This document shows, piece after piece, positions 2,394-63,991 of a stretch of DNA of 64,000 nt. A model generated the notes under the pieces. That model was not told the DNA's origin, ran no database searches, and saw only the letters and a list, made by a program, of their open reading frames with translations. How positions within the stretch are numbered: position 1 is the stretch's first letter; the number at the start of each line of letters is the position of its first letter. The position numbers and the translations under genes were made by a program. The DNA is taken from NCBI RefSeq assembly GCF_028368995.1, contig NZ_JAQNDL010000002.1:1280001-1344000 (forward strand), read 5' to 3'. This DNA is from Nannocystis bainbridge (GTDB taxonomy: Bacteria; Myxococcota_A; Polyangia; Nannocystales; Nannocystaceae).

Positions 2394-3626
2394 ATGCAGC
2401 CCTGTCCCTATCGCAAGATCCGCCCGCTGGGCGAAGGGTCGATGGGGGACGTCCACCTGTGCGTCGACGTGCAGCAGCGGCGCCTGGTGGTGGTCAAGTG
2501 GCTGCGGGCCGAGCTGCACGAGGGCAGCCAGGCGGCGGTGCGGTTCCGCCGCGAGGCCGAGCTGATGGCGGGCGCCAACTTCCCCGGCGTCATCAAGGTC
2601 GAGGAGTGGGGCCTGGACGAGTTCGGTCGCACGTGGATGGCGATGGAGTTCGTCGACGGGCTCATGCCATCGGCCGTGGTCGGGCCCGGTGATTGTTGGT
2701 CGGTGCACCGGCTGCTCGCGGGCGTGGGCCAGGGGCTCGACGACCTCCACGGCCTCGGCGTGGTCCACCGCGACCTCAAGCCGGAGAACGTGCTGCTGCG
2801 GAGCTCGGTCGACGGCTGGGAGCCGGTGATCATCGACCTCGGGATCGCCAAGTGGCTGGCGCAGGAGACGGCGACCGCGAGCGGCTCGGTGTTCGGCACG
2901 CCGCACTACATGAGCCCGGAGCAGTGCCGCGACACCAAGCACGTCGGGCCGGCGACCGACCGCTACGCCGTCGCGGTCATCATCTTCGAGCTGATGGCCG
3001 GGCGCCGGCCGTTCGAGGGCCGCACGATCCCGGAGCTGCTCCGGCAGCACCTCGAGTCGCCCGTGCCCGAGCTGCAGATCCCCAAGCGCGTGCGCTCCGG
3101 GGCGATCCGCGACACCGCGGCCAAGGCGACGTACCCGTCGCCCAACCTCGACGCGTTCATGCGCAAGGCGATGGCCAAGGAGCCGCGGCTGCGGTTCGGC
3201 AGCGGCAAGGAGATGACCGACGAGTTCGAGCGCGCGGCCAAGGCCGACGGGCTGTGGGAGATCCCCGACCCGTCGGACATGACGCCGCTGTTCCCGGCGC
3301 TGACCCACCCGATGGCCGAGATCATCATCGACGGTGAGTCGCGCCAGCGCTTCGACGTGCGTCACGGGCCGCTGGTGCTCGGACGTCACGAGTCGTGCCA
3401 GGTGGTGCTCGGCTCACCGCGGCTGAGCCGCCTGCACGCGTGCGTCTACCTGCACCGCGGTCGGGTGTGGGCCGCCGACCTGCACAGCCAGAACGGGACG
3501 CTGTTCCAGGGCCGCGCGCTGCAACCGGGCGTGCCGATGCCGTTCCCGCCCGGGGGGCAGACGGCCGTGTTCACGCTCTACAACCGCAACATCGCCGTCC
3601 GCCTGTGCACCACCACGGGGGCGTGA
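2394..3626 (+). CDS. Ser/Thr protein kinase with C-terminal FHA domain
   Basis: Kinase motifs GEGSMG, HRDLKPEN, DLG and GTPHYMSPEQ. FHA motifs LGR, SRLHA and DLHSQNGT. Confidence 0.9.
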   Translation: MQPCPYRKIRPLGEGSMGDVHLCVDVQQRRLVVVKWLRAELHEGSQAAVRFRREAELMAGANFPGVIKVEEWGLDEFGRTWMAMEFVDGLMPSAVVGPGDCWSVHRLLAGVGQGLDDLHGLGVVHRDLKPENVLLRSSVDGWEPVIIDLGIAKWLAQETATASGSVFGTPHYMSPEQCRDTKHVGPATDRYAVAVIIFELMAGRRPFEGRTIPELLRQHLESPVPELQIPKRVRSGAIRDTAAKATYPSPNLDAFMRKAMAKEPRLRFGSGKEMTDEFERAAKADGLWEIPDPSDMTPLFPALTHPMAEIIIDGESRQRFDVRHGPLVLGRHESCQVVLGSPRLSRLHACVYLHRGRVWAADLHSQNGTLFQGRALQPGVPMPFPPGGQTAVFTLYNRNIAVRLCTTTGA

Positions 3627-3639: not shown

Positions 3640-5670
3640 ATGGCGGGCGGGGACGACGCGGCTGCGGGACATGTCCGGAAGGACAGGGCAGTCGAGGATG
3701 CTTCGGGACATGTCCTGAGGGACATGAGTGAAGATGCTCCGGGACATGTCCTGAGGGACAGTGACGAGGATAACTTCGGACATGTCCCGAGAGACAGCCA
3801 TCCCGCGCTCGCGGCGGGACATGATTTGCGGGCCCCGGGTGGCGGGGGGGATGCTTCGGCTCTGGGTCGGCGCGCTGCCGTCTTGCTGTTCGGGCCGGCG
3901 ATCGCGTGGACGCTGGTCGCTGCGGCCGGGCTCGGATGGGCCGGGGCGCGGGCGGACGCCTGGGGGCCCGCGCCGCGCCGCGATGCGCCGGTGGTCGGCT
4001 CCGAGGCGTGTCTGGCGTGCCACCCGACCCAGCACGCCAGCTGGTCGGCGACGTATCACCGGACGATGACGCAGCGCGCCGAAGGCGAGGCCGTGCTGGC
4101 GCCGTTCGCCGGCGAGCACGTCGACCACCTCGGCTTCCGCGCGACGATGACGCGCAGCGCCGCGGGCCGCCCGCACGTGCGCGTGAGGCCGCTCGACGAC
4201 GAGGGGCGCGAGGTCGGCGAGCCGCTGCTCGATGTCGAGGTCGTGATGACGGTGGGCAGCCACCGCTATCAGCAGTACCTGGCGCAGATCGACCGCGGCG
4301 GTGGGCCCGGCGAGGTGTGGCGCCTGCCGGTGGCCTGGCACGTCGCCACGGCGCGGTGGATCCCGATGAACGCGGCGTTCCTCGAGCCGGAGGGCGCGCG
4401 GGGCGACGCCGAGGCGTACCTGCGCCACCTCAGCCGCTGGAACGACAACTGCGTGCTGTGCCACAACACCGAGCCGCGGCCGGGGATGGCGCAAGAGACA
4501 GGTGAGGCGCCGCGCTTCGCCACCACCGTGGGCGAGCTCGGGATCGCGTGCGAGGCCTGCCACGGGCCGGCGGGCGCGCACCTGCAGCGGCACGCCGATC
4601 CGTTCCGGCGGCTGCTGGCCGGCGGGGCAGGGGACGGATCGATCGCGCACCCGGGCCGGCTGGTGACGCGCGACGAGAGCGGGGTGTGCGGGCGCTGCCA
4701 CGGCAACCGGATCAGCGCCGACGTCGCGGCGGTGCTGCGCGAGGGCGACGGGTTCTTGCCCGGGACGGACCTGGCGGCGGTTTCGCGCCCGATCTTCCGC
4801 GACGCGACGGTCGGCGGCGAGGCGCTGTTCGCCGAGCGCTTCTGGCCCGACGGGACGCCGCGCCTGTCGGCCTACGAGTACCAGGGGCTGCTGCTGTCGC
4901 CGTGCCACCAGGGCGGCCGTGAGGGCGGGCTCGGCTGCGACGACTGCCACGCGATGCACGGCGACGAGCCCGACATGCAGGTCCGCGGCGATCGCAAGGG
5001 CGCGCGGGCCTGTACTTCGTGCCATGTCCCCGAGGACATGTCCTCAGGGACACGTCACGGAGGACATGGCCCCACGGTCACGTGCCAGGGCTGCCACACG
5101 CCGCGGATCACCTACGGGCTGCTCGAGGGGATGATCGGCCACCGGATCGCGGTGCCGCGGCCGCAGGCGTGGATCGGGCGCCACGACCAACCGGACGCGT
5201 GCACGCAGTGTCACGTCGACCGCAGCCGCACGTGGGCGGCGGAGGCGCTGCCGCGGCTCGGGTTCCCGGAGGCGGGTCCGCTGCCGCCCGCGGCGCCCGA
5301 CGAGGGGTGGGGCTCGCGGGTGCAGCTCGACCTGGTCGGCGGCGATCCGCTGCAGCGGGTGCTGGCGATCCACGCGCTGACGCGGCCCGAGGTGCCGGTC
5401 GCGGCGTCCGAGCGGCGGGGGTGGATCACCGACGCGCTCGACGACGAGTACCCTGCGGTGCGGTGGTTCGCCTGGCGAGCGCTGGGGGAGCTCGCGGCGC
5501 CGGAGCAGCGCGCGCTGGTGGCGGCCTACGATCCGCACGCGGAGGCCGAGCGTCGGGTACCGGCCGCGGACGCCCTGCGCGCGGCGTTCGGGACCGGGCC
5601 GTTCAGCCCCGAGCAACGTGAGGCGCTCGAGGCTCGGCGCGAGCAGACGGTGCTGTGGATCGGCGAGTGA
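3640..5670 (+). CDS. Multiheme c-type cytochrome with C-terminal HEAT-like repeats (true start uncertain)
   Basis: Eight CXXCH motifs (CLACH, CVLCH, CEACH, CGRCH, CDDCH, CTSCH, CQGCH, CTQCH) plus SPCH, a hydrophobic signal/TM segment, and a HEAT-like LDDEYPAVRWFAWRAL. Confidence 0.88.
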   Translation: MAGGDDAAAGHVRKDRAVEDASGHVLRDMSEDAPGHVLRDSDEDNFGHVPRDSHPALAAGHDLRAPGGGGDASALGRRAAVLLFGPAIAWTLVAAAGLGWAGARADAWGPAPRRDAPVVGSEACLACHPTQHASWSATYHRTMTQRAEGEAVLAPFAGEHVDHLGFRATMTRSAAGRPHVRVRPLDDEGREVGEPLLDVEVVMTVGSHRYQQYLAQIDRGGGPGEVWRLPVAWHVATARWIPMNAAFLEPEGARGDAEAYLRHLSRWNDNCVLCHNTEPRPGMAQETGEAPRFATTVGELGIACEACHGPAGAHLQRHADPFRRLLAGGAGDGSIAHPGRLVTRDESGVCGRCHGNRISADVAAVLREGDGFLPGTDLAAVSRPIFRDATVGGEALFAERFWPDGTPRLSAYEYQGLLLSPCHQGGREGGLGCDDCHAMHGDEPDMQVRGDRKGARACTSCHVPEDMSSGTRHGGHGPTVTCQGCHTPRITYGLLEGMIGHRIAVPRPQAWIGRHDQPDACTQCHVDRSRTWAAEALPRLGFPEAGPLPPAAPDEGWGSRVQLDLVGGDPLQRVLAIHALTRPEVPVAASERRGWITDALDDEYPAVRWFAWRALGELAAPEQRALVAAYDPHAEAERRVPAADALRAAFGTGPFSPEQREALEARREQTVLWIGE

Positions 5671-9453: not shown

Positions 9454-11196
9454 ATGACCTCGCCCGCAGAGCTCCCCGGCGCCGGCCTCGACGTCGCCAG
9501 CGTGCAGAGAGACCCGCTCGTGCTCGAGCAGCGCGACGACCTCCCGGAGTTGATCCCGCAGCTGCCGCCGACCGCGTTCGTGCAGATCGCCCGCGGGCTG
9601 CGCGAGGAGGATCGCCTCGACCTGGTGCTGCCGCACGCGTCGCCCGAACAGCTGACTGCGTTGCTCGACCTCGACGGCTGGGAGCGCGAGCGGATCGCCG
9701 TCGACAAGGCGCGCGGGTGGCTGGTGGCGATCGCCGACGCGTACATCGCGGCCGGCAAGCCCCGCGGAGATCTGCGCACCGTCATCGAGGACATGGATCC
9801 CGAGATGTGGACGATGGCGCTGTTGCCCGGGACGGCGGTCTACGAGCTCGATCCGGAGGACAACGAGCAGCGCGACCAGGCGATGGCGGCCGTCGACGCG
9901 CTGTTCCCCTACGAGACGCCCGACGGCGGCTTCGTCGTCGCGGTGCCCGACAACACGCTCGGGCACATGGTCGTGCACGTGCTCGAGCGGGTCTACGCCG
10001 ACGACCTGCAGACGGGGCGCCAGTTGACGCTGTCGCTGCGCGGGGCGCTGCCGGCCCAGCTCGAGGAGGATCTGCTGCGCTGGCGCAGCGGTCGCCTCGC
10101 CGACCTCGGGTTCGTCGCGTGGGAAGAGGCGATGAAGCTGTTCCGGCCGCTCGACGCCAAGTCGGCGCGCGAGGTCGCGGCGGCGCCGGCGGCCGCGGCT
10201 CCGCGCGAGGGCGAGGCGCTGCCGGCGGCGTTCCCGTCGCCGTCGGCGGGGCTGCTGCGGCGGGTGCTCGGCGGGCTGGTGGCGGGCGAGCAGGGCGTGC
10301 GCGCGCGCGAGTTCACGCTGCTCGTCAACGAGCTGATGTCCGCCCAGCGCAGCGAGCCGGGCGACGCCAAGGCGCAAGAGCGGGCGTTCCATCAGGCCGA
10401 GGCGACGGTGAGCCTGGGCCTCGAGGTGCTGGTGGTCGGGCTGAGCCTGCCGCCGGCCGAGGTCGACCCGTTCCTGGCCGGGCGGATCGCGGCGCTGGGG
10501 CTGCGCGGGGTGTTCCGCGTCGGCTACGGGCCGCTGGCGGCGCTGCGCAAGACGGCGCTGGCGCTGCACCGCGAGGGCCGGGTGTCGCTGACGAAGATCG
10601 GGTCGCTGCTCGATCGGCCGTGGGGACCGGCGATCGAGAGCCTGTCGCGGTGGCTGCCCGAGCTGCCGATCGAGACGGCCAGCGCCGGGGTGCGGCCGAT
10701 CGCCGGCATGCGCGACGTGGCCCGCGCGACCGAGCTGCTGGCGCAGGCCGGGGCGTTGGCGGCGTTGACGTTCGACCCGCGCGGCTACGCGGTCGACCCG
10801 CAGTGGGTCAGCCGCGTCGACGAGCCCGATCGGCTGACGCTCGGCGATCTGCTGCGCACCTCGGCGGTGCGCCGGCAGCTGCCCGGGATGTCCGAAGAGA
10901 CAGCCGCGGCGTTCGCCCCGGTCGACGCCGACGACCTGGCGTGGGCCGCCGATCACCTGCTGGTGAACGGCCGTCTGGCCCCGGTCCTGGCCGCCGACCT
11001 GCGCAAGCGCTGCCTGGCGCTCGGGGTCCCGCAGCACGCGGAGGCGTTCGTGAAGGCGGTCCTGCTGCGACTCGAGGTCGAGCTCGGGGCGCTCGAGCGC
11101 GACGAAGAGGGCACGGTCGACCTGCGGCGCGCGGGCGGGGTGATCACGCCGCAGCGGATCGGCGTGTGGCTCAAGACGGGCCTCAGCGCGAGCTGA
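9454..11196 (+). CDS. Conserved hypothetical protein (DUF6178-like, deltaproteobacterial)
   Basis: Long ORF with host codon bias. The motifs PEQLTALLDLDGW and WRSGRLADLGF recall DUF6178 proteins (from memory, not searched). Confidence 0.6.
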   Translation: MTSPAELPGAGLDVASVQRDPLVLEQRDDLPELIPQLPPTAFVQIARGLREEDRLDLVLPHASPEQLTALLDLDGWERERIAVDKARGWLVAIADAYIAAGKPRGDLRTVIEDMDPEMWTMALLPGTAVYELDPEDNEQRDQAMAAVDALFPYETPDGGFVVAVPDNTLGHMVVHVLERVYADDLQTGRQLTLSLRGALPAQLEEDLLRWRSGRLADLGFVAWEEAMKLFRPLDAKSAREVAAAPAAAAPREGEALPAAFPSPSAGLLRRVLGGLVAGEQGVRAREFTLLVNELMSAQRSEPGDAKAQERAFHQAEATVSLGLEVLVVGLSLPPAEVDPFLAGRIAALGLRGVFRVGYGPLAALRKTALALHREGRVSLTKIGSLLDRPWGPAIESLSRWLPELPIETASAGVRPIAGMRDVARATELLAQAGALAALTFDPRGYAVDPQWVSRVDEPDRLTLGDLLRTSAVRRQLPGMSEETAAAFAPVDADDLAWAADHLLVNGRLAPVLAADLRKRCLALGVPQHAEAFVKAVLLRLEVELGALERDEEGTVDLRRAGGVITPQRIGVWLKTGLSAS

Positions 11197-11224
11197 GGCC
11201 TCGCGCCGCGTGGCCGCGAGGACA

Positions 11225-11294
11225 TGCGCGTTCGGACATGCTCGAACGCGCATGTGCGCACGGACATGTCCGTTCGCGCATGCTCGATCGGCCA
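11225..11294. repeat. Phased array of five 14-bp palindromic units
   Basis: TGCGCGTTCGGACA TGCTCGAACGCGCA TGTGCGCACGGACA TGTCCGTTCGCGCA TGCTCGATCGGCCA, located between convergent genes. Confidence 0.85.
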
Positions 11295-15464: not shown

Positions 15465-16307
15465 GTGAAGCTGGTCGTGATCGTGACGGGGGCGAGCGGG
15501 GCGATCTATGCCCGCCGGGCGCTGCATGTCCTCGCGGACCTGTGCGCAGGGACAGGGTCGAACGAACCGGCGTACCCGGGCCTCGAGGTCGACTGGGTGG
15601 CGTCGGCGACGGCGCCGCAGGTGTGGCTGACCGAGCTCGGTGAGCCGATGCCGCTCGAGATCTCGGCCCACGTGCCGACGGTGACGGCGGGCGAGCCGGA
15701 CGAGCCGGACGAGCCCGAGGTCCCGCCAGCGCTGCCGAGCGCGACGGCGGCGCGGCGCGAGCCGGGGACGTCGCGGGCGGGGCCGCCGACCGAGTTCTTC
15801 GGCTCGAACGTGTTCGGGCGCATGAGCCAGGCGGTGACCCCGTCGGCCACGCCGACGCTGAAGGGGTCGGCGCGGGAGCCGGGGCCGGCGTCCGAGTCGG
15901 CGCCGAGCCGCGTGCGCCGGTGGGACCGCCAGGACTTCTCGGCCCCGTTCGCGTCGGGCAGCAACGCGCCCGACGCGGTGCTGGTGATGCCGTGCTCGAT
16001 GAGCGCGCTCAGCCGGGTAGCCCACGGCGGCGGCGACGACCTGGCGGCTCGCGCCTGCGAGGTCGCGCTCAAGGAGCGGCGGCGGTTGGTGCTGGTGGTC
16101 CGCGAGACGCCGCTCAGCCTGGTCCATCTGCGCAACATGGTGGCCGCGACCGAGGCCGGGGCGATCATCCTGCCGGCGGTGCCGTCGTTCTATGGGGCCG
16201 TGCGCACGCTCGAGGACGCGGTCGACACCGTGGTCGCGCGCGCGCTCGATCACGTCGGGCTGCGCGTGCCGCTGACCCGCCGCTGGGGCGATCCGGAGAG
16301 CGCATGA
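15465..16307 (+). CDS. ubiX: Flavin prenyltransferase UbiX with a long internal insertion
   Basis: TGASGA, APFASGS, MPCSM, LKERRRLVLVVRETP and PSFY motifs. Confidence 0.9.
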   Translation: MKLVVIVTGASGAIYARRALHVLADLCAGTGSNEPAYPGLEVDWVASATAPQVWLTELGEPMPLEISAHVPTVTAGEPDEPDEPEVPPALPSATAARREPGTSRAGPPTEFFGSNVFGRMSQAVTPSATPTLKGSAREPGPASESAPSRVRRWDRQDFSAPFASGSNAPDAVLVMPCSMSALSRVAHGGGDDLAARACEVALKERRRLVLVVRETPLSLVHLRNMVAATEAGAIILPAVPSFYGAVRTLEDAVDTVVARALDHVGLRVPLTRRWGDPESA

Positions 16308-17020
16308 CGCCCGCCGAGCTGGCGCGCCTGTTCGACCAGCCGGCCGAGGCCGGGGCCCGCGCGCAGGCGGCCCGCGCGAGCCATTTCGGGCGCCGGGTCC
16401 AGGTCCGCGGGACGCCGCCGCACCCGCCGCCGACCGTGGCGGCGCTGCTGCGCGGGGCGGGCCCGGTGGTGGTCGATCTTCCGGGCTGGTCTCAAGAGCA
16501 TGTCGCAAGGGCCATGGCCGATGCGACAGGGCGCTCGGGACATGCCGAATCGGACATGTCCTCGGGGACATGTGCGAGCGCCGCTCCCGGGTGGCCGGAG
16601 CCGGCGGCGCTGCGGGCCGGCGACCGCGTGGTGCTGCAGGTCGATCGGGCGCGGCTGGGCGACTACTTCGAATACCTGGTGCGCCTGGCCGCCGCGGCGC
16701 CGGAGGGGCTGTCGGTGGCGCCGTACTGCGCGCTGGCGGGCGGGCTGATGCGCCTGCACCTGATCGCGGCGGCGCGCGTGGCCCTGCCGGGGCGGGTGCG
16801 CGTCGAGGCGCGCCACGACTTGCTCGGCATCCGCCTGGCCCAGGTCGCGCTCGGGTTCGGCGCCGACACGCTGGCCGGCCCGCTGGCGCAGACCCGCAAG
16901 CTGCCGCTGGCCGGCGTGCCGCGGCCGGACGAGGCGACCCCCGCCGGTCTGGCGGCGCTGATCGAGCGGGCCGGGCTCGAACCTGTCCTTGACGACATGA
17001 CCTCGGAGACATTGCCATGA
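16304..17020 (+). CDS. Degenerate MqnE/MqnC(CofH)-like protein lacking the radical SAM cysteine motif
   Basis: The C-terminus LGIRLAQVALGFGADTLAG...LAALIERAG aligns by eye with neighbouring MqnE IGVKTAQIALSFGVDDLDG...LVRLIREAG. ATGA overlaps with both neighbours. Confidence 0.7.
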   Translation: MTPAELARLFDQPAEAGARAQAARASHFGRRVQVRGTPPHPPPTVAALLRGAGPVVVDLPGWSQEHVARAMADATGRSGHAESDMSSGTCASAAPGWPEPAALRAGDRVVLQVDRARLGDYFEYLVRLAAAAPEGLSVAPYCALAGGLMRLHLIAAARVALPGRVRVEARHDLLGIRLAQVALGFGADTLAGPLAQTRKLPLAGVPRPDEATPAGLAALIERAGLEPVLDDMTSETLP

Positions 17021-22506: not shown

Positions 22507-22528
22507 TGCCATCCGGGCACAAGCGAAC

Positions 22529-22736
22529 GGCCGCGCCTCCGGGGGAGAGCGCGGCCTTACGGACACGAGCGAAAGGCCGCGCCGGGGAGAGGGCGGCCTT
22601 CGGGGCACACGCGAAAGGCCGCGCCTCCAGGGAGAGCGCGGCCTTTGGGACACGAGCCAAGGCCGCGCCTCCGGGGGAGAGCGCGGCCTTCGGGGCCCAA
22701 GCGAAAGGCCGCGCCTCCAGGGAGAGCGCGGCCTTG
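22529..22736. repeat. Five REP-like hairpin repeats (about 42-46 bp period)
   Basis: GGCCGCGCCTCC(G/A)GGG(G)AGAGCGCGGCCTT repeated with short variable linkers between convergent genes; the second copy is more degenerate. Confidence 0.8.
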
Positions 22737-24088: not shown

Positions 24089-24277
24089 GACAGGTCCGAT
24101 GTGGCCTGGCGTGCCCGTGGCTCCGCGCGCGATCGGCATGTCTTATAAGACAGGTCCGATGTGGCCTGGCGTGCCCGTGGCTCCGCGCGCGATCGGCATG
24201 TCTTATAAGACAGGTCCGTCATGGCGCGGCGCATGCGTGGCTCCGCGCGCGATCGGCCTGTCTCGTGGGACAGGTCG
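24089..24277. repeat. 60-bp tandem repeat (2 identical copies plus 1 degenerate)
   Basis: The unit GACAGGTCCGATGTGGCCTGGCGTGCCCGTGGCTCCGCGCGCGATCGGCATGTCTTATAA occurs at 24089 and 24149, with a variant at 24209. Confidence 0.9.
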
Positions 24278-29364: not shown

Positions 29365-29377
29365 AGCTCCCAAGGCC

Positions 29378-30921: not shown

Positions 30922-30994
30922 GCCACTTTAGCTCAGTTGGTAGAGCAGCTGATTCGTAATCAGCAGGTCTCCGGTTCGAGTCCGGAAAGTGGCT
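30922..30994 (+). tRNA. tRNA-Thr (anticodon CGT), CCA not encoded
   Basis: Acceptor stem GCCACTT/AAGTGGC, D arm GCTC-AGTTGGTA-GAGC, anticodon arm GCTGA-TTCGTAA-TCAGC, T arm TCCGG-TTCGAGT-CCGGA. Confidence 0.97.
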
Positions 30995-36603: not shown

Positions 36604-36912
36604 TCATCTGCTCGAAAGGACAGGTGCGCGGGGTGTGGTGGTGTCCGAAGGGACAGGCGTCATCTGCTCGAAAGGACAGATGCGTGGGGTGTCCGAAGGG
36701 ACAGGATCGTCTGCTCGAAAGGACAGATGGGTGGTGTTGTGGCCGTATCCGAAGGGACAGGATCGTCTGCTCGAAAGGTCAGATGGGAGGTGGTGTCCGA
36801 AGGGACAGGCGTCATCTGCTCGAAAGGACAGATGCGAGGGGTGTCCGAAGGGACAGGTGCGGCACCATCTGCTCGAAAGGACAGGGGCGATGGGCCTGTC
36901 CTGAAGGACAGG
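36604..36912. repeat. Alternating array of two 14-bp palindromic units downstream of mnmG
   Basis: TGCTCGAAAGGACA about 6 times, alternating with TGTCCGAAGGGACA about 5 times, ending with TGTCCTGAAGGACA. Confidence 0.9.
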
Positions 36913-36923
36913 CGGCGCCGGTG

Positions 36924-38687
36924 TCACGCGGTCCGGGCGCGCGCGGCTTCGTGGGCGGCTGCTTCGGCGCGGCGCTGGGCGGCGCGGACGTGGGCCCACA
37001 GGCACATCAGGGCTGCCGGGGTGATGCCGGGGATCCGCGCGGCCTGGCCGGTGCTGGTCGGGCGCACGCGGGCGAACCGCTCGGCGGCCTCGGTGGTGAG
37101 GCCGGGCAGGCGCCGGTAGTCGGTGTCGGGGTCGATCGGGAGGTCGGTGGCGCCGCCGCGCATGACCCGGATCTCCTTCTCCTGGCGCTCGAGGAAGCCG
37201 GCGTAGCAGCGCTGCGCCTCGGCCCGCTCGGTCAGCCAGGCCGGGGCGGCGGCGTCGGGCTCGGCGAGCAGCCGGCGGACGCGCTCGACGCGGGCGCGGG
37301 CCCTGTCGTAACGGACAGGGTCGATGAGACCTGCTGCAAAGGCCATGTCCGAGAGCCGGGCGTCGGCGTTGTCCTCGCGCAGGAGCAGGCGGTACTCGGC
37401 GCGGGCGGTGAACATGCGGTACGGTTCGTCGCAGCCCTGGGTGACGAGGTCGTCGATCATGACGCCGGCGTAGGCGTGCTCGCGGCCGAGGATCAGCGGG
37501 GAGCGGCCGAGGGCGGCGAGGGCCGCGTTGGCGCCGGCGACGAGGCCCTGGACGCCGGCCTCCTCGTAGCCGGATGTGCCGTTGATCTGGCCGGCGAACC
37601 ACAGGCCGGGGATGTCGCGGGCGCCGAGAGTGTGGTCGAGGTCGCGGGCGTCGACGGCGTCGTACTCGACGGCGTAGCCAGGGCGCAGCATGACGGCGCG
37701 CTCGAGGCCGGGGATGGTGCGGATGAAGGCTTCCTGGACGTCGGCGGGCAGGCTGGTCGAGATCCCGCCGGGATAGACGCTGTCGGTGTCGAGGCCCTCG
37801 GGCTCGAGGAAGATCTGGTGGCGGTCGCGGGCGGCGAAGCGCACGATCTTGTCCTCGAGCGAGGGGCAGTAGCGCGGGCCGCGGCCGACGACCTGGCCGC
37901 TGTACATGGCGGAGCGGTGGAGGTTGGCGCGGACGAGCTCGTGGGTGGCCTCGGTGGTCCAGGTGATCCAGCACGGGACCTGGGCGAGCACGGGCGGAGG
38001 GCCGTCGTCGGGCAAGGTGAAGCGCGGCAGCGGGTCTTCGCTGGGCTGCTCCTCGGTGCGGGCGTAGTCGAGGGTGCGGCCGTCGAGGCGGGCCGGGGTG
38101 CCGGTCTTGAGGCGGCGGAGGCTGAAGCCGAGGGCGCGCAGGTGCTCGGACAGGGCGAGGGCGGGCGGCTCGCCGACGCGCCCGCCCGGGACGGTGCGCT
38201 CGCCGGTGTGGAGGAGGCCGCCGAGGAAGGTGCCGGTGGTGATGACGACGGCGTCGCCAGGCACGAGGCTGCCATCCTCGAGCACGACGCCGCAGGCGCG
38301 GCCGGCGTCGCGGTGGACGGCGGCGACGAGGCCCTCGAGGACGCGAATCCGGGGGTCGGCGAGCAGGGCGGCGCGGGCGAACTGGCCGTAGCGGGCCTTG
38401 TCGACCTGGACCCGGGTGCTGCGCACGGCGGGGCCCTTGGAGCGGTTGAGGATCCGGCCGTGGATCGCGCAAGCATCGGCGGCGCGGCCCATGAAGCCGC
38501 CCAGGGCCTCGATCTCCTTGACGAGGTGACCCTTGGCGACGCCGCCGATGCTGGGGTTGCAGGGGGTCTGGCCGATGGTGGCGCGGCTGCCAGTGACGAC
38601 GAGGACGCGCGCGCCGACCCGCGCCGCGGCAAAGGCGGCCTCGAGCCCGGCGTGTCCGGCTCCGACGACGATGACGACGGGCTCCAC
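36924..38687 (-). CDS. mnmG: tRNA uridine-5-carboxymethylaminomethyl modification enzyme MnmG (GidA)
   Basis: VVGAGHAG, CNPSIGGVAKG, SKGPAV, RLKTGTP, GPRYCPSLEDK, AGQINGTSGYEEA, EPYRMFTARAEYRL and RIPGITP motifs. Confidence 0.96.
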   Translation of the reverse strand: MEPVVIVVGAGHAGLEAAFAAARVGARVLVVTGSRATIGQTPCNPSIGGVAKGHLVKEIEALGGFMGRAADACAIHGRILNRSKGPAVRSTRVQVDKARYGQFARAALLADPRIRVLEGLVAAVHRDAGRACGVVLEDGSLVPGDAVVITTGTFLGGLLHTGERTVPGGRVGEPPALALSEHLRALGFSLRRLKTGTPARLDGRTLDYARTEEQPSEDPLPRFTLPDDGPPPVLAQVPCWITWTTEATHELVRANLHRSAMYSGQVVGRGPRYCPSLEDKIVRFAARDRHQIFLEPEGLDTDSVYPGGISTSLPADVQEAFIRTIPGLERAVMLRPGYAVEYDAVDARDLDHTLGARDIPGLWFAGQINGTSGYEEAGVQGLVAGANAALAALGRSPLILGREHAYAGVMIDDLVTQGCDEPYRMFTARAEYRLLLREDNADARLSDMAFAAGLIDPVRYDRARARVERVRRLLAEPDAAAPAWLTERAEAQRCYAGFLERQEKEIRVMRGGATDLPIDPDTDYRRLPGLTTEAAERFARVRPTSTGQAARIPGITPAALMCLWAHVRAAQRRAEAAAHEAARARTA

Positions 38688-39044: not shown

Positions 39045-40604
39045 GTGACGGGCTTCGTGTCGATCGTCGGCGCCGGTCCCTGGGACCCGGAACTACTCAC
39101 CCTGGCGGGGCGCGAGCGGCTGACCCGGGCGGACGTGGTGATCGCGGATTACCTGGTCAACCCGGCGCTGTTCTCCCATTGTCGTGCGGACGTCCACCTG
39201 TTCCAGCGCACCGAGAGCCCGCACGCGGGGGCCCACGGCGAGCCGGTGCCCGACCAGGAGACGATCAATCGCCTGATGGTCGAGCGCGCGGCGGCGGGGC
39301 TGTACGTGGTCCGCCTCAAAGGCGGCGACCCGATGGTGTTCGGCCGCGGCGCCGAGGAGGCCGAGGTGCTGGCGGCGCGTGGGATCCCGTTCGAGTTCGT
39401 GCCGGGGGTCAGCGCGGCGATCGCCGCGCCGGAGGCGGCCGGGATCCCGGTGACGCATCGCGACCACGCGCCGTGCGTGAGCCTGGTGTCAGGCTACGAG
39501 GCGTACGAGAAGGGCGGGCGCGCGGTCGACTGGGAGCACCTGGCCAAAGGGACAGGTACGCTGGTGTTGATGATGAGCGTGCGCAACTGCCGGCAGAACG
39601 CGGAGCGGCTGATCGCGGCCGGGCGCGATCCGGCGACGCCGTCGGCGGTGATCCGCTGGGGCACGCGGGGGATCCAGCGCACGCTGGTGGCACCGCTGGC
39701 GCAGATCGCCGATCGCGTCGAGGCGGAGGGCCTGCGCCCGCCGGCGGTGATGGTGGTCGGCAGCGTGGTCGACCTGCGGCGGTCGACGCAGTGGTTCGAG
39801 CGCCGGCCGCTGTTCGGCAAGCGGGTGGTGGTGACGCGGGCGCGGCACCAGGCGAGCGACCTGCTGCAGCTGCTGGCAGGTCAAGGCGCCGACGCGGTGT
39901 CGGTGCCGTGCCTCGACATCGCGCCGCCCGACGATCTGGCGCTGCTCAGCGGGGCGGCGCAGAGCCTGGACGAGGTCGACGGGGTGATCCTCTCGAGCCC
40001 GAACGGGGTGCGCGCGTGGTTCGACGCGCTGGCCGGGCTCGAGCTCGATGTGCGGGCGCTGCACGGGAAGTGCCTGGCGGCGATCGGGACGGGCACGGCC
40101 AATGCTTGCTGGGAGCGCGGGATCCGGCCGGACATCGTGCCGTCGGCGGCGCGCTCGGAGGGGCTGGTCGAGACGCTGGCGTCGCGCGGGCTGCTGGAGC
40201 GCCGGTGGCTGCACGTGCGCGCCGACGAGGGCCGCGACCTGATCGGCGAGGCGGTGCGCGCGGCGGGCGGGACCTATCGGCTGGTGGTCGGCTACCGCGT
40301 GACGCGGCCGAAGGTGCCGGGGTTGCTGACGCGTTCGCTGCTGCCGCTCGAGCACGGCGGCGAGGGCACCGACGCGATCTGCTTCGCCAGCGGCAAGACG
40401 GCGCGCAACTTCGTCGATACGTTGATGGAGGCGCACGGGGAGGCGCTGACGCAGGAGATCCTGCGCCGCGCGCGACTGGTGGCGCTGGGGCCGGTGACCG
40501 CGGCGGCGCTCGAGGCGATGGACCTGCGACCGGACGCGGTGGCGGGCGGGCTCAGCGACGAGGCGATGCTGGCGGCGGTGATCGAGGCGCTGGGCCGCGG
40601 GTAG
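39045..40604 (+). CDS. cobA: Fused uroporphyrinogen-III C-methyltransferase / uroporphyrinogen-III synthase (CobA-HemD)
   Basis: VGAGPWDPELLT, VRLKGGDPMVFGRG, VPGVS, GIPVTHR, then RPLFGKRVVVTRA, LSSPNGV and FASG. Confidence 0.92.
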   Translation: MTGFVSIVGAGPWDPELLTLAGRERLTRADVVIADYLVNPALFSHCRADVHLFQRTESPHAGAHGEPVPDQETINRLMVERAAAGLYVVRLKGGDPMVFGRGAEEAEVLAARGIPFEFVPGVSAAIAAPEAAGIPVTHRDHAPCVSLVSGYEAYEKGGRAVDWEHLAKGTGTLVLMMSVRNCRQNAERLIAAGRDPATPSAVIRWGTRGIQRTLVAPLAQIADRVEAEGLRPPAVMVVGSVVDLRRSTQWFERRPLFGKRVVVTRARHQASDLLQLLAGQGADAVSVPCLDIAPPDDLALLSGAAQSLDEVDGVILSSPNGVRAWFDALAGLELDVRALHGKCLAAIGTGTANACWERGIRPDIVPSAARSEGLVETLASRGLLERRWLHVRADEGRDLIGEAVRAAGGTYRLVVGYRVTRPKVPGLLTRSLLPLEHGGEGTDAICFASGKTARNFVDTLMEAHGEALTQEILRRARLVALGPVTAAALEAMDLRPDAVAGGLSDEAMLAAVIEALGRG

Positions 40605-40741: not shown

Positions 40742-41977
40742 ATGAGCTTTCTTCGCCAGTACGCGGCGAGCGAGGCCGAGGCGCGGAGGGCCCTGACGCT
40801 GCGGTGGCTGGCGGGGCGGCCGCGCGAGCTGTTCGCCGAGCTGCAGCGCGAGCGGCCGATCCTGGTGACGCCGGGTCTGGTGCTGGTGACGCGCCACGCG
40901 GAGGCGCTCGAGGTGCTGAGCCGCGGCGATGTGTTTTCAGGACATGTCCTCGAGGCCAGGCGGCACGCGCTGTTCGGCGGGTTCTCGCTGGCCGAGCGCG
41001 AGGGGCCGCGGGCGGCGGCCGAGGCGGCGCTGGTGCGGGTGTGCGTGCGGGGGGACGACGCGGACCGGGTGGCGGCGATGAGCCACGACGCGGCGGTGGG
41101 GGCGATGCTGGCAGCGAGCAGCCGCGGCGGGCTCGACGTGGTGCGGGATCTGGCGCACGTGGTGGCGGGGCGGGTGGCGGCGGAGTACCTCGGGGTCAGC
41201 GGGCCGGAGGAGAGCACGCTGGTGCGGTGGGTCGAGGCGATCGCGCGCGATGTCGACGACAACCCCGGGGGCGACAGCGAGATCCACGAGGAGGCCCGCG
41301 CGGCGGTGGCGGAGCTCGGCGGGTACACCGACACGATGGTGGCGTCGCGCCGGGCGCAGCGAGCGTCGGGGCGGATGGCGGGCGACGACGTGCTGGGGCG
41401 GCTGGTGGCGCTGGGGCACCAGCGGCTCGAGGAGCGACGCCTGCGTGAGGTGCTGTTGGCGCTGCTCGTGGCGGCGGTGGAGCCGATCGCGGCCTCGATC
41501 GCGCTGGCGATCGGCGAGCTGATCGATCGGCCCGGGGCGCTGCAGGTGGCCCGCGCGGCGGCGCTGGCCGGCGACGATGCGGGGCTGTGGGCGGTGCTGC
41601 GCGAGGCGCTGCGGTTCTCGCCGCCGCGGCTGACGGTGTGGCGGAGGTGCGAGCAGCGGTATCACCTGGCCCAGGGGACAGGCGACGAGGTGACCGTCGA
41701 CGCCGGCACGGCGGTGGTGGTGGCCATCGCGGCGGCGGCGTTCGATCCGGCGCGCGTCGACGAGCCGGAGCACTTTCGCCTCGACCGGCCGGAGCAGCAC
41801 GATTTCCTGTTCGGCGAGGGGCCGCACGCCTGTCTGGGCCGACACGTGGCGATCGCGGCGGTGCGCGAGGCCTGCAAGGTGCTGCTGGGCCACGAGTTCC
41901 GCCTGTCGGGGCCGCTGCGGCGCGACGGCGGGCGGCCGATCGGATTCCCGATCGCGGTGGCGCCGTTGCCCAAGTAG
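40742..41977 (+). CDS. Cytochrome P450
   Basis: ExxR motif EALR, meander FDP...FRLDRP, and heme motif FGEGPHACLG. Confidence 0.9.
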   Translation: MSFLRQYAASEAEARRALTLRWLAGRPRELFAELQRERPILVTPGLVLVTRHAEALEVLSRGDVFSGHVLEARRHALFGGFSLAEREGPRAAAEAALVRVCVRGDDADRVAAMSHDAAVGAMLAASSRGGLDVVRDLAHVVAGRVAAEYLGVSGPEESTLVRWVEAIARDVDDNPGGDSEIHEEARAAVAELGGYTDTMVASRRAQRASGRMAGDDVLGRLVALGHQRLEERRLREVLLALLVAAVEPIAASIALAIGELIDRPGALQVARAAALAGDDAGLWAVLREALRFSPPRLTVWRRCEQRYHLAQGTGDEVTVDAGTAVVVAIAAAAFDPARVDEPEHFRLDRPEQHDFLFGEGPHACLGRHVAIAAVREACKVLLGHEFRLSGPLRRDGGRPIGFPIAVAPLPK

Positions 41978-47706: not shown

Positions 47707-47714
47707 CGTGCGGT

Positions 47715-48782: not shown

Positions 48783-51037
<2,255 letters not shown>

Positions 51038-51041
<4 letters not shown>

Positions 51042-52033
51042 GCGAGCACCTCGACCGACGGATCGGGGCCGGGGCCGACGATGTCGACGGCGTGCACGCC
51101 GGGCACGTCGCGCAGGCGCAGCGCGAGGTCGTCGGCGTGGGCGGTCAGGCACAGCACCTTGACGTGCGGGCCGGCGTCGCTGGTGACGAAGCCCTGCAGG
51201 CCGTCGCCGCGCAGGCGCCACACGGCGTGGATGACGTCGAGGGTGGCGCCGCGCCAGTACACGATCGGCGGGCGGCTGGCCATCATGCAGGCGTGCATCT
51301 TGAAGCAGGAGTGCTCGAGGATGTCCCCGAGGACAGGTAGGTCGCGGGCCGCCAGCGCGGCCTCGGCGGCGGCGAGGTCGGCCTCGGAGGTGTCGACCCA
51401 CGGGCCGTAGTAGGGCGAGGTGTCGCGGCTGCGCTGCATGCCGGCGGTCGAGCCGAGCGACTTGGGGCCGCGCTCGGTGTGGACGATGAGCAGGCGGACG
51501 TCCCAGTGCGACTGCGGCTGCAGCGGGTAGGCCCGGCAGTCGCTGCCGTCGGGCTGCACGCCGCGGTCGAGGCGGACGAAGCCGCCCCACAGCGAGCGCG
51601 CGGCCGAGCCGGAGCCGCGGCGCGCCAGGGCCGACAGCGCGGGGCGGCCGGGCTCGTACTCGAAGGCGGCGGCGGCGGCGAGGGTCAGGGCGGCGAAGCC
51701 CGAGGCGCTGCTGGCCAGGCCGGCGGCCGTCGGCAGGTGGTTGTGCGAGGTGACGGCGCAGGTCGGACGCGCACCGGCGTGACCGGCGGCCTGCCACATG
51801 CGATCGAGGTGGCGCATGACCTTGGCCGCGACCTCGCCCGAAGCTGGCTCTTGGTTCAGGTGGAACGAGTCCTGCTCGCCGGGACCGACGGTGGTCACGC
51901 TGCGCAGGTGATCGAGGGTCAGCGACAGCGAACCGACGGCCGGCAGATTGAGGTCGGCCGGCGACGCGTCGCGCTTGCCCCAATACTTGACGAGGGCGAT
52001 GTTGGTATGGGCGACGGCCCGGGCGCTCTTCAT
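51038..52033 (-). CDS. mvaD: Diphosphomevalonate decarboxylase
   Basis: NIALVKYWGK, PTAAGLASSASG, RRGSGSAARS and DAGPHV motifs. Confidence 0.95.
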
Positions 52034-60811: not shown

Positions 60812-63800
60812 TCACGCGGTGCGGTGGCGGCGGGTGAACGAGCGCAGCAGGGCGGCGATGTTGCCGCGGACCTGGGGGTCGGTGCTGAGGCGGTAGCCGG
60901 GGGTGCGCATGGCGGCCGGAAGCAGCGGCAGCAGCGTGTCGTTGAGCTTCTTCTCGGCGCGGGCGTCGATGATCTTCTCGAACATGTCGGCGACGACGGT
61001 GTCGCCCTCGAAGTCGATCGAGAAGCGGGCGTCGCCGAAATTGTAGTGCAGGCCGCAGATCAGGAAGTTGAGGCGCGCCGGGCCGTCGACCAGGAGCGCC
61101 GGATCGGCGCCGATCCGCAGGCCGCCGTCGTCGAGGCGCAGGCGCACGCGGGTGCCGGGGAGCAGCAAGATGTCGACGAGGTGGTGGTGGAACAGCACGA
61201 GCCGGCCGCGGTCGTCGACGGGGAAGCGGTCGAGCAGGCCGCGCACGCCGGAGGCGCTCGGATCGCCGACGTCGCCGATCTGGCGGCGGATGATGGCCTC
61301 CACCAGAGCGTTCTCGAGCTGGCCGAGGCCGCCGACCTGGACCTCGCCCGACTGCAGGTGATAGCGGGCGCCGCGGAGCTGGATCGCCAGGCGCAGGCCG
61401 GGCATGCGCGCCGAGAGGCCGCGCTCGCTCTCGAGGGTGACCTCGACCTCGTTGGCGGTCAGGGTGACGCTGTCGGCCGGGTCCATCAGCAGCGCGAACT
61501 CGCCGTGATCGCCGGGCAGGCGGGCCGCGAACACGGCGATGCGCGTCGCGTCCTCGGGCGGGGCCGGCGGCATCGGCGGGCGCGGCAGGCCGAGCCGCTG
61601 GGCCCAGACGGGCGGCAGGCGCGGGGCGGCGAGGACCTTGTAGAGGTGCGAGAGCACGGCCTCGGTGACGGGGCTGACCGCGGCGGCCTCGTGGTAGTGC
61701 TCCTCGGCGATGCCGCTGATCGCCAGCTTCACGGCGGCGTCGCCGGCCCGCAGGCTGAGGTCGTGGAGGTAGAAGTCGGGCAGCCAGTCGAGCGAGCCGT
61801 CGGTGACGAACAGGCCGGCGGCCGAGCGCAGCGACACGCCGTCCTTGTCGAGGTGGAGGTCGATCGAGCCGCCGCGGGCGACGCAGATCTTGAGCGGACC
61901 CCACGGCTTGTCGGCGCCGAGCGCCAGGAGGGTGTCGTGGCCGGCCCGCGGCGAGCGATCGCTGGGCCAGAAGTGGCGCATGAACGCGGCGAACAGGGTC
62001 CGCATGGCGTGGCTGAGCAGCTGCTGCGACAGCTCGCCGGCCGGCGGCGAGGCGTCGATCACCAGCGTCCACGGCAGGAAGGTGAGGTCGATGGTGCGCA
62101 CGGTGAGCGTCAGGCCGAGGCCGAGGATCCGCACCGTGGCGCCCTTGCCGAAGGCGATGTGGGCGCCGCCGCGGCCGAGCGAGAGGTCGACGGTGCGGGC
62201 CGCGTCGGCGCTGACGCGCACGGCCCCGAGCGCGCCGACGGTCTGCTCCCACACGACCACGCCGGGCGCGGCCGGCAGCGGCGGCGGGATCGGGGCGGCG
62301 GCCGGCAGGGCGAGGCGATCGAGGATGTCGGCGAGCCGCTTGTCGGGGACGAAGCGGGCGAACAGCCGGCGCAGGATCTCGTGCACCAGCGGCCCGCTGG
62401 GCGGCTGGCTCACCAGCTCGATCGCGGCGGCGCCGGGCCGGTAGCGCAGGCCTTCGAGGGCGACGTCGGCCAGCAGGTCGGTGCCCTCGGCGACGAGCTG
62501 CAGCGGGGCCTCGGCGCGCAGCTCGAGCGCGTCCGGGCGCCGCTCGAGCCGCAGGCCGGCGCCGGGCGGCAGCTCGAGGCGGACGCGGACCCGCTTCGAG
62601 CTGTCCCTTGGGACCTGCGCCAGGAGCCACGTCTCTTCGGGCAGCTGCGGCGGCGCCAGCGGGAGGTGCGGGCGCAGGCGGGTCAGCCCGAACTGCTCGA
62701 CGCAGCGGGCCACCAGCTGCGACAGGTAGTCGCCGAGCGGCGGCTCGCTGGCGGCGCGCAGGCTGGTGGTTGCGATGTCGTGGTCGAGCGCGGCCAGCCG
62801 CAGGACCAGGCCCAGCTCGGGGGCGACGACGGCGAGCCCGCGCGCGCTGGTGAAGCCGAGCTCCGCGGGCGCGAGGCGGACGGCGAGGGTGTCGTCGGGG
62901 TCGAAGCGGACGTCGAGCGGGCCGACCACCGGGACGCGGGTGCTGGCGAGCAGGGCCGAGGGCAGCGCTTCGAGGCCCTGCTGGGGGCCGCCGTCGCGGC
63001 GCACGCCGAGGATGTCCGGAAGGACAGGTGCGGCGCGGACCCGGATCAGCTGGGCGAGGGCGAGGTCGCCGAACTCGCCGAGCGCGGGGCTGGCCTCGGT
63101 GACGACGCTGCCGTCGTGCCAGCGGTACTCGATCCGGTGGAGGTCGATGTCGGGCAGGACGGACAGGCCGCGGAAGCGCAGGCGCAGGCCGGCGGGGGCC
63201 TCGACGACCAGCGCGCCTTCGCCGTGGCGGACGTGGACCTCGCCGTCAGGGTCGGTGGTCAGGCGCACGCCGGTGCGCGGATTGAACGGCTGGTCGAGGA
63301 TCTGCAGCTCCTCGGCGTCGCGCTCGTCGAAGAGGCCGAGGCGGCCCAGCAGGGCGGGCGACAGGCGCGGCAGCACGCGGGCGTCGACGACCCGGCGGAG
63401 CAGCGCGCGCATCAGCGGACCGAGCGGCGGGTCGGTCTGGATCTCCAGGCGGACCCGCGGCTCGACGCCGGCGACGGCCGACGGGGCGCCGACGAGGACG
63501 GCCCGGACCAGGCGCAGCTCGGCCAGCTCCGGCAGCTCGTCGGCGTGCACGGCGAGGCCGCCGGGGGCCTCGAAGCGGAACCCGCCGGCGGCGCGGGTGA
63601 GCAGCAGCTCGCGGTCGCCGAGCAGCGCCAGCTCGCCGCGGGCGCCGAGCGGGATGCGGGCCAGCACGCGGGCGCCGGACGGCGGCTGGCCGGCGTGCAG
63701 CTGGCCCGGGATGATGTCGGCCAGGCGCGCGCGCAGGCCGACGGGCGCGGCTGGCGTCGCGGACATGTCCGTCGGGGCATGTCCGTTGGGACCTGTGCCG

Positions 63801-63991
63801 ACGGGCATGTCGGAAGGAGCATGTCCTTCGAGACCTGCGCCCACGGGCATGTCGGAAGAGACAGGCGCGCCCGCGGCATCGCGCTGCTTGCCGCGGCGCG
63901 GGCGCTTCTGGCCGCGGAGCCGGCGCACGAGGTCCTCGACGCGGACGCGGCGCTGCTCGTCGGCGAACAGGTCGTAGCCGGGGATGGTCAT
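60812..63991 (-). CDS. Large hypothetical protein made of about 8 beta-strand/helix modules
   Basis: 1059-aa ORF with host codon bias, internal repeats, and no signal peptide or recognisable catalytic motif. Confidence 0.8.
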   Translation of the reverse strand: MTIPGYDLFADEQRRVRVEDLVRRLRGQKRPRRGKQRDAAGAPVSSDMPVGAGLEGHAPSDMPVGTGPNGHAPTDMSATPAAPVGLRARLADIIPGQLHAGQPPSGARVLARIPLGARGELALLGDRELLLTRAAGGFRFEAPGGLAVHADELPELAELRLVRAVLVGAPSAVAGVEPRVRLEIQTDPPLGPLMRALLRRVVDARVLPRLSPALLGRLGLFDERDAEELQILDQPFNPRTGVRLTTDPDGEVHVRHGEGALVVEAPAGLRLRFRGLSVLPDIDLHRIEYRWHDGSVVTEASPALGEFGDLALAQLIRVRAAPVLPDILGVRRDGGPQQGLEALPSALLASTRVPVVGPLDVRFDPDDTLAVRLAPAELGFTSARGLAVVAPELGLVLRLAALDHDIATTSLRAASEPPLGDYLSQLVARCVEQFGLTRLRPHLPLAPPQLPEETWLLAQVPRDSSKRVRVRLELPPGAGLRLERRPDALELRAEAPLQLVAEGTDLLADVALEGLRYRPGAAAIELVSQPPSGPLVHEILRRLFARFVPDKRLADILDRLALPAAAPIPPPLPAAPGVVVWEQTVGALGAVRVSADAARTVDLSLGRGGAHIAFGKGATVRILGLGLTLTVRTIDLTFLPWTLVIDASPPAGELSQQLLSHAMRTLFAAFMRHFWPSDRSPRAGHDTLLALGADKPWGPLKICVARGGSIDLHLDKDGVSLRSAAGLFVTDGSLDWLPDFYLHDLSLRAGDAAVKLAISGIAEEHYHEAAAVSPVTEAVLSHLYKVLAAPRLPPVWAQRLGLPRPPMPPAPPEDATRIAVFAARLPGDHGEFALLMDPADSVTLTANEVEVTLESERGLSARMPGLRLAIQLRGARYHLQSGEVQVGGLGQLENALVEAIIRRQIGDVGDPSASGVRGLLDRFPVDDRGRLVLFHHHLVDILLLPGTRVRLRLDDGGLRIGADPALLVDGPARLNFLICGLHYNFGDARFSIDFEGDTVVADMFEKIIDARAEKKLNDTLLPLLPAAMRTPGYRLSTDPQVRGNIAALLRSFTRRHRTA

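Follow-up and report, generated by a model that had tools for sequence, protein, structure and literature searches.

A 14-bp dyad repeat tiles gene ends and recurs within coding sequences in the genus Nannocystis

A short dyad-symmetric word, TGTCC-N4-GGACA, marks a 64 kb stretch (positions 1,280,001-1,344,000, hereafter the window) of the genome of Nannocystis bainbridge, which measures 11.05 Mb, has a G+C content of 71.5% and is labelled G000 in the comparisons below. The main home of the motif is the 3' side of stop codons, within the first tens of bases, where units are set in arrays; intragenic copies are a minority and, to judge from alignments, were made in place and are conserved. We give about even chances to the reading that this genus-specific dyad, found mainly in gene-end arrays, is recognised by its sequence, and that a putative dimeric DNA reader makes of it a bidirectional gene-end signal. 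The dyad would be read as double-stranded DNA by dimers bound side by side in 14-bp register. Arrays at gene ends would provide a bidirectional, factor-dependent 3'-end signal, by termination, roadblock or insulation, and intragenic dyads would be kept because the same putative reader acts on them.

Structure and distribution of the repeat

Sites were scored out of the 10 fixed bases of TGTCC-N4-GGACA, and matches of at least 8/10 were listed in the window. The repeating unit is a 14-bp lattice, GGACA-TGTCC-NNNN, best written as the dyad. Tiling of (ACA)TGTCC-N4-GGACA(TGT) units allows the lattice to be written also as GGACATGTCC-NNNN. Over the whole genome, 1321 same-strand recurrences of GGACA are spaced by 14 bp, versus 27 by 13 bp and 38 by 15 bp, and further peaks are found at 28, 42, 56, 70 and 84 bp. 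At offset 5 from GGACA, TGTCC is found 956 times; GGACA at offset 9 from TGTCC, the arrangement of the dyad, is found 1987 times. The dyad is the commonest element, mostly extended to ACATGTCC-N4-GGACATGT, and arrays vary in length from 1 to 10 units. In sites scoring 9/10 the least variable bases flank the CA/TG junction, positions 1 and 12 being mismatched in 10 of 1200 sites each. Direct reading of the sequence reveals no stop codon in the fixed part in any frame, so that arrays are translatable.

The genome carries 8868 strong matches, about 0.8 per kb; in this the motif is a short lineage-specific word of the kind represented by uptake signal sequences (USS) and DNA uptake sequences (DUS). 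A 19-nt pattern was found in all of 11 Nannocystis genomes searched (1-311 matches); in 30 genomes from other genera of the same family and class, matches number 0-1. The reversed pattern, used as control, gave no match in any of the 41 genomes, and the stretches fetched agree with this distribution. On such searches, the motif is confined to Nannocystis. The 20 sequencing runs listed as containing the DNA of the window are metagenomes (soil, wetland, root, rhizosphere) available as contigs. Literature searches on Nannocystis genome repeats, on the 10-mer in bacteria and on myxobacterial repetitive extragenic palindromic (REP) elements returned, in the search listings, no description of the motif. 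Those made with the 10-mer core, GGACATGTCC, returned mostly p53 and primer papers; the core matches perfectly one half-site of the response element of animal p53, which we take to be a coincidence.

Arrays at gene ends

Perfect sites are 8-fold rarer in genes, 80 per Mb in gene interiors versus 628 per Mb outside. Strong matches mark 61.8% of 1288 convergent gaps (7.5 matches per kb), 30.1% of 3616 tandem gaps (2.5 per kb) and 17.4% of 1467 divergent gaps (0.84 per kb). Gaps of 100-200 bp with a strong match are 299 of 416 when convergent, 228 of 918 when tandem, and 15 of 332 when divergent. At the stop codon the density jumps from 1-2 to 65-73 matches per 1000 genes per 10 nt. Counted from the base that follows the stop, sharp maxima of match starts occur at -3, +11, +25 and +39, and at +2 and +16. 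Stops are often embedded in the lattice, which implies that TGA opens a TGTCC-like or a GGACA-like half-site. The first unit lies at a median distance of 20 nt from the stop, and the last one at 144 nt from the next start. Nearly every gene end in the window has an array. The initial annotation had dealt with intragenic copies, which are real, and had overlooked this main location.

Divergent gaps (40-600 bp) were also screened for a candidate reader that might regulate its own gene, and only 31 of them hold two or more matches of at least 9/10. One array in the window departs from the general rule, as its four units (54250-54319) lie in a gap between genes that our own calls place as divergent (52950-54014, minus strand, and 54771-55778, plus strand). 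This may be the end of a small gene or RNA that escaped annotation.

Reading as DNA or as RNA

The strongest of the rival explanations, though in our estimate an unlikely one, places the function in the transcript. TGTCC-loop-GGACA hairpins, with stems reaching 8-10 bp when units adjoin, would work as non-canonical terminators or as barriers to 3'-exonucleases, similarly to the TRIT elements of Mycobacterium, and intragenic copies would be conserved mRNA structures. The location right after stop codons and the high coverage of convergent gaps match TRIT elements as described (PMC3152330). Two adjoining Nannocystis units can form, by direct reading of the sequence, a perfect 10-bp stem with a 4-nt loop, and complementary double variants are in modest excess (see below).

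Several observations are counted against hairpins. The motif has no strand polarity relative to transcription (205 versus 236), and the spacer itself is dyad-symmetric: read on the sense strand it conforms to YYRR, position 1 being Y in 78% and position 4 being R in 77%. Stable tetraloops have no strand bias (TTCG 28 versus CGAA 36, GNRA 41 versus 36). Mismatches of the G-U type, which RNA pairing would tolerate, are not favoured on the sense strand over their mirror images (335 versus 288, p=0.065). The U-tract that follows the G+C-rich hairpin of canonical intrinsic terminators was not seen after the arrays, the longest T run in the next 15 nt being at most 2 in 719 of 782. A search of the window against Rfam matched a tRNA only, the gene at 30922-30994 on the plus strand (71.5 bits), and no family corresponding to the motif. 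Hairpins spanning neighbouring units, suggested by the spacers of the array at 11211-11280, were considered and rejected, as spacers genome-wide have 1.09 complementary positions versus 1.07 and show no covariation. Finally, it is the sequence itself, not merely the pairing, that is conserved. Lack of polarity, the YYRR spacer, the absence of tetraloop bias, G-U preference, spacer covariation, U-tract and Rfam family, as that of a REP-type transposase (see below), together lead us to favour, at about even odds, a reading as double-stranded DNA.

Copies in coding sequences and their conservation

Coding copies were counted in 5857 confident coding sequences (CDS; 7.35 Mb) defined by a crude codon-usage gene caller of our own, and compared with five synonymous shuffles and three codon-order shuffles of the same set. 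Perfect sites number 603, versus 11-25 in synonymous and 3-5 in codon-order shuffles, and phased pairs 530, versus 15-24 and 1, respectively. Matches of at least 9/10 number 1974, versus 326-351 after shuffling, from which about one in six isolated 9/10 matches could be due to chance. Single 8/10 matches are mostly background (5149 versus 4029-4096). Intragenic matches are evenly spread along genes, with no positional preference, and occupy the three reading frames unequally (51/201/353). G+C at third codon positions (GC3) drops to 0.690 in codons under matches of at least 9/10 (n=10,353), from 0.950 outside (n=2,620,311), because the 14-nt period puts A/T bases of the motif at third codon positions in some unit. 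The anomaly in codon usage, reported at several sites of the window by the initial annotation, is confirmed; alone, it does not separate selection from insertion.

Conservation was analysed in a 584 kb region of G000 and three congeners, four close-kin species that are not independent of each other, by codon alignments of 236 genes (93,203 codon columns) called by the same procedure. In columns encoding the same amino acid in all four species, with G000 as reference, A/T-ending codons lying on fixed positions of the motif are identical in the four species in 86 of 97 cases, versus 664 of 3018 outside matches (odds ratio 27.7, Fisher 9e-43). For G/C-ending codons the figures are 198 of 213 on the motif and 60393 of 74881 outside. 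The window alone, which was compared with the syntenic DNA of four congeners, gives 14 of 15 versus 85 of 431.

Changes on terminal branches were counted over 210 sites defined from the other three species, a procedure that avoids ascertainment on the focal genome, and compared with the numbers expected from background rates for the same codon position and base. There were 27 losses, versus 81.0 expected; third positions make up nearly the whole deficit (14 versus 64.1). Within these sites the four bases of the spacer are unconstrained (33 changes versus 24.9 expected). Gains at mismatched positions are 3, versus 0.73 expected. For isolated half-sites, gains and losses are as frequent as for control words of the same composition, which indicates that the full dyad is what is constrained. 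The making of half-sites by patch conversion or template switching was considered and rejected: gains of TGTCC or GGACA by one, two and three changes are 62/56, 9/5 and 1/0, the control medians being 67/55, 8/8 and 1/1. The alignments thus show a DNA word that is better kept than the peptide it encodes, the fixed bases of the full dyad being held while spacers and neighbouring silent sites drift. A selection-like constraint on the DNA, superimposed on the protein code, had been proposed from codon usage in the window, and the identity of A/T-ending codons and the deficit of third-position losses bear it out.

In arguing from it for functional sites the initial annotation went too far; conservation of this type could arise also by a molecular drive devoid of local function. 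A bias of uptake and recombination, as for USS and DUS, or of sequence-specific repair would complete near-matches and restore mutated copies in genes and between genes alike, and gene ends would gather most copies because they tolerate them. We rate this explanation, too, as improbable, and place it next after hairpins in transcripts. The abundance of the motif and its restriction to one genus fit a drive, as do the even spread along genes, the preference for given frames, and the formation of coding copies by substitution at less conserved residues; several changes found only in G000 bring the sequence closer to the motif. Uptake sequences are described in similar terms, their coding copies being products of substitution that favour certain frames and residues of low conservation (PMC2817400). 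Against a drive stand the 8-fold rarity of the motif per Mb in genes, the rise in density, about 40-fold, exactly at stop codons, the gains on terminal branches, only weakly above background, and those of half-sites, which are not raised. To our knowledge, uptake sequences do not form tandem arrays in 14-bp phase, and we count this also against a drive.

Origin of the intragenic copies

Intragenic copies are largely free of length changes. Among G000 and the three congeners compared over 584 kb, 114 of 116 strong intragenic matches are without indels. In the four congeners aligned to the window, intragenic sites have no indel except for one codon beside the array at 31165 in one species (G001), and a gap at 16984-17011 in another (G003). 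For seven loci of the window the alignments were extended to three distant congeners, and to two outgroup genera devoid of the motif. In the distant genomes G009, G011 and G013 synteny ends after four genes, and orthologs were sought gene by gene. No length change was seen at four of the seven loci (mnmG, the HMG-CoA-reductase domain, cobA-hemD and mvaD), which feature 3-6 clustered substitutions toward the motif, silent as well as amino-acid changing. In mvaD, CCC GCC CTC GGC GCC GTG is replaced by CCT GTC CTC GGG GAC ATC. In mnmG, GQARHER is replaced by DPVRYDR, and non-synonymous changes thus occurred on the way to the motif. Short indels were found at the other three loci, all in variable loops (5 additional codons in the cytochrome, 4 in the DUF6178 gene, 1 in the GHMP-kinase half of a fusion gene), and arrays in linkers are in-frame expansions of 42 nt (14 amino acids) with indels. 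Codon columns under the motif are invariant at the protein level in 475 of 607 cases (78%), versus 80127 of 90463 (88.6%) outside. Intragenic copies are shown by these alignments to have arisen in place, by clustered point substitutions, which created rare A/T-ending synonymous codons and tolerated amino-acid changes, and by small in-frame expansions of loops and linkers. The initial annotation was correct in holding that they are not inserted mobile repeats and that rare synonymous codons are used. It went too far in describing the host sequences as conserved, since the residues involved are less conserved than others, amino acids changed too, and three loci have indels of 1-5 codons.

Elements akin to REP, to miniature inverted-repeat transposable elements (MITE) or to Rickettsia palindromic elements (RPE), inserting between genes and, in frame, into genes, would account for thousands of palindromic copies 3' of genes. 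Loop insertions bearing units, as those in the cytochrome and in the DUF6178 gene, point the same way, as does an additional unit of 8 codons seen in a distant congener. Identical neighbouring spacers are in excess (84 versus 22), which denotes local tandem duplication. Absence of indels at nearly all sites among congeners, and of length changes at most loci against outgroups, is at odds with insertion; none of the indels measures a whole multiple of 14 nt, and position and unit number of arrays are kept across species. The Y1 (IS200/IS605-like) transposase associated with REPs (PF01797) gave no match in G000, a genome 90.5% complete; the same search matched 6 of 14 control genomes. Mobile insertion is on these grounds very improbable. 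Chance, or a compositional artefact of a 72% G+C genome, may explain isolated 8/10 matches and some 9/10 ones, and is refuted for arrays and perfect sites by the shuffled sets, the 14-bp peak and the reversed-pattern control, so that as a general account it deserves practically no credence and, together with mobile insertion, is effectively excluded.

Evidence weighing on the proposed protein reader

Several observations weigh against the reading of the dyad by a dimeric protein. If arrays stop transcription, hundreds of conserved intragenic dyads, with no preferred position along genes, are awkward. Complementary double variants are modestly over-represented (142 of 225 for the pair 4/9, versus roughly 114 estimated by hand from the spectrum of single mismatches), and such an excess fits base pairing as well as a site with symmetric variants. 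The statistics of a palindrome are symmetric whether it is read as DNA or as RNA made from both strands, which renders the case for DNA indirect. The signature of conservation is the same for selection on a local function and for a drive that restores the motif, and it comes from a single 584-kb region of four closely related species, with genes from a crude caller.

A more far-reaching form of the same reading is rather doubtful in our judgement. A Nannocystis-specific putative dimeric reader would polymerise in 14-bp register on GGACATGTCC-N4 lattices and define gene 3' ends genome-wide, and its demand for sites would have been strong enough to alter both codon choice and protein sequence across hundreds of housekeeping genes. 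Were a reader of this type at work, the outcome would amount to a second, conserved code in the DNA, superimposed on that for proteins.

Sites within the window

A multiheme cytochrome c gene (3883..5670, plus strand; Pfam Paired_CXXCH_1 and Cytochrome_C7) hosts four in-phase 14-bp units at 5025..5080, with starts at 5025 and 5039 (10/10 both), 5053 and 5067 (8/10 both). The strong units encode the loop VPEDMSSGTRHGGHG, directly after the heme motif CTSCH (H-VPEDMSSGTRHGGHGPTV). A weak fifth unit, TGTAC TTCG TGCCA (5011..5024), scores 7/10 by hand count, below the threshold of the list, and lies over the TGT ACT TCG TGC CA of CTSCH. This unit and the T of the His codon CAT are all that touches the heme motif; of 6 close sequences, 5 retain the TGT ACT of this unit. 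Four phased units overlapping CTSCH had been placed at 5011..5066 by the initial annotation; the units are real, and the span was set one unit too far left. The closest named relatives of the cytochrome are from Nannocystis species (86-92% identity), and congeners in this range of protein identity keep the array, including the rare codons ACA, GGA GGA and CAT. Three distant congeners lack it, their gene being 5 codons shorter there, and encode HGGH as CAC GGC GGG CAC, where the clade with the motif has CAC GGA GGA CAT. The other sites cited in the same annotation (10889, 15527/15541, 37304, 39541, 40945, 49452/49466, 50841, 51322) are all matches of 9-10/10, and the identities it gave to their genes agree with Pfam (DUF6178, flavoprotein/UbiX-like, MnmG, TP_methylase and HemD, P450, GHMP-kinase and HMG-CoA reductase, MVD).

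Single units mark several genes. The DUF6178 unit (10889..10902, 9/10) is within a 4-codon insertion relative to distant congeners and to one outgroup. The unit in the cobA-hemD fusion (39541..39554, 9/10) has no indel against outgroups; AAA GGG ACA takes the place of CGC GGC ACC/AAC, as read in G009 and G008, the two distant congeners that aligned. The P450 gene (40742-41977) features one unit at 40945..40958 (9/10), raised from 8 to 9 by a G000-specific GCC to GTC change (A to V), and a second at 41667-41680. Its ortholog was not found in five distant genomes, where only two paralog-level matches (32%) were detected, both in G011. The unit in the GHMP-kinase half of the fusion (50841..50854, 9/10) is perfect in three distant congeners, one with an extra inserted unit, and is lacking in both outgroups. 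A perfect unit in the mevalonate diphosphate decarboxylase gene (51322..51335) was made by substitutions only (PALGAVM to PVLGDIL).

Other genes carry phased units. In mnmG, the unit at 37304 (9/10) is accompanied, 42 nt further and in phase, by GGCCATGTCC (37341-37350), the whole site spanning 37304..37350; GGCCATGTCC is a perfect GGACATGTCC in the four congeners, and no indel is found against outgroups. The HMG-CoA reductase domain has two units at 49452..49479 (starts 49452, 9/10, and 49466, 10/10), again with no indel against outgroups; a G000-specific change of CCC CGC to CCT GTC (R to V) completed one perfect unit. The mevalonate-pathway genes are co-oriented at 46789-54014 on the minus strand, and include the GHMP-kinase/HMG-CoA-reductase fusion (48783-51041) and the diphosphomevalonate decarboxylase (51038-52033); the P450 gene is nearby. 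Two units (15527..15554; starts 15527 and 15541, 9/10 both) lie in the flavoprotein (UbiX-like) gene, whose N-terminal segment gave no alignment in distant genomes. The same gene (15465-16307) encodes 280 amino acids, versus 162 positions in the Pfam profile, and distant congeners match only residues 150-276 and, separately, 2-65; the middle of the protein looks like a lineage-specific insertion. Two units (9/10 and 8/10) mark the 3' end of the open reading frame 16628-17020 at 16984..17011, where the 14 surrounding codons are identical at the nucleotide level in four species, and G003 has one substitution and the gap at the last codon. Six units at 63752..63863 fall in a poorly conserved linker of a large gene (60812-64702, minus strand), with indels between species; three units make 42 nt, a repeat of the 14-residue peptide SDMPVG.G..GHAP.

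Intergenic arrays vary in complexity. The one at 3672..3796 (matches of 10, 10, 10 and 9) starts 46 nt past the stop of the gene at 2394-3626. The array at 11211..11280, in a convergent gap, has five units in all five species compared, with CATG cores kept and spacers free. A large array at 36609..36910, ending 14 nt from the mnmG stop, is made by motif-built higher-order repeats of 48-56 bp. About 5 copies with 75-81% matches are detected as a tandem repeat at 36599-36914, downstream of mnmG, in which GTGTCCGAAGGGACAGG and ATCTGCTCGAAAGGACAGATG alternate.

Additional tandem repeats reside in the window. At 22508-22735, in the gap between the convergent genes 20598-22325 (plus strand) and 22751-23554 (minus strand), a different repeat with a 45/90-bp period (2.6-5 copies, 80-88% matches), whose unit starts with GCCTTCGGGGCACAAGCGAAAGGCCGCGCC, is found beside matches to the 14-bp motif. 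At 24089-24263, just downstream of the gene 24381-25892 (minus strand), a 60-bp repeat (2.9 copies, 91% matches) has one motif-like unit per copy, at a spacing that is off the 14-bp phase. Repeats of 34 and 84 bp (GGCCTGAAGCTGCGGCAGGCTGAGGGGCTTCGGAT) lie at 29374-29600, in the convergent gap after the gene 28912-29364. A 36-bp repeat at 57095-57247 (4.1 copies, 96% matches) lies between the genes 56373-57023 (plus strand) and 57410-58753 (minus strand), and its high identity suggests a recent expansion.

Comparison with known systems

Over-represented words that invade coding regions are known mainly from the uptake sequences of a few competent pathogens, and sequence-conserved palindromes at gene ends from REP elements and the mycobacterial TRIT. 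One large-genome myxobacterial genus joins both traits in a phased lattice, with a silent-site constraint that can be measured across species. DUS are also reported as inverted pairs at gene ends, and we know of no competence or uptake bias in Nannocystis. The repeat resembles the USS of Pasteurellaceae and the DUS of Neisseria in being lineage-restricted, present on both strands at roughly one per kb, and, as described for uptake sequences (PMC2817400), made in coding regions by substitution, at weakly conserved residues and in preferred frames. In contrast to these, the Nannocystis word is itself a dyad; it tiles strictly every 14 bp, in arrays as long as 10 units, and is 8 times sparser within genes, with its maximum exactly at stop codons.

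The TRIT of Mycobacterium is described as a single palindromic hairpin of 147 copies, conserved in sequence and in structure, bidirectional, genus-restricted and located narrowly at stop codons, for which the authors suggested a binding factor (PMC3152330). The Nannocystis palindrome is similarly conserved in sequence, placed narrowly at stop codons, bidirectional by symmetry and restricted to a genus; the resemblance is of kind only, the sequences being unrelated. It differs by its about 8900 strong matches, by the tandem arrays of 14-bp units, and by conserved copies, in the hundreds, that lie deep in genes.

REPs and bacterial interspersed mosaic elements (BIME), which are associated with RAYT transposases, are abundant palindromes found 3' of genes, rare in divergent promoter gaps, and often combined in composite arrays. 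The Nannocystis motif clusters likewise in 3' intergenic DNA, but has a much shorter unit, no Y1 transposase found in G000, and 603 perfect sites inside confident CDS, where copies are conserved and made by substitution. RPEs are in-frame, translated insertions of about 100-150 bp; the Nannocystis repeat is also translated as part of proteins but, unlike RPEs, most sites entail no change in length. MetJ met-boxes and Fur boxes are operator arrays that bind cooperative dimers in the promoters of regulons, and dyads of the CRP/FNR type have a 5-N4-5 arrangement. Two 5-bp half-sites around a 4-bp spacer, and abutting sites in fixed register, recall the geometry of these operators. In contrast to such operators, the sites of Nannocystis are scarce in divergent promoter gaps and are set at gene ends throughout the genome.

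The genus offers a natural system to learn how far a DNA-level signal can bend protein sequence, how gene ends are marked in high-G+C bacteria without U-tract terminators, and which protein, if any, reads the lattice. Recoding or codon optimisation of Nannocystis genes, including biosynthetic clusters, would erase sites, and arrays may serve as gene-end markers in annotation pipelines. The repeat is distinct from USS/DUS, TRIT and REP/BIME by the combination of strict 14-bp tiling and gene-end arrays with hundreds of conserved intragenic dyads.

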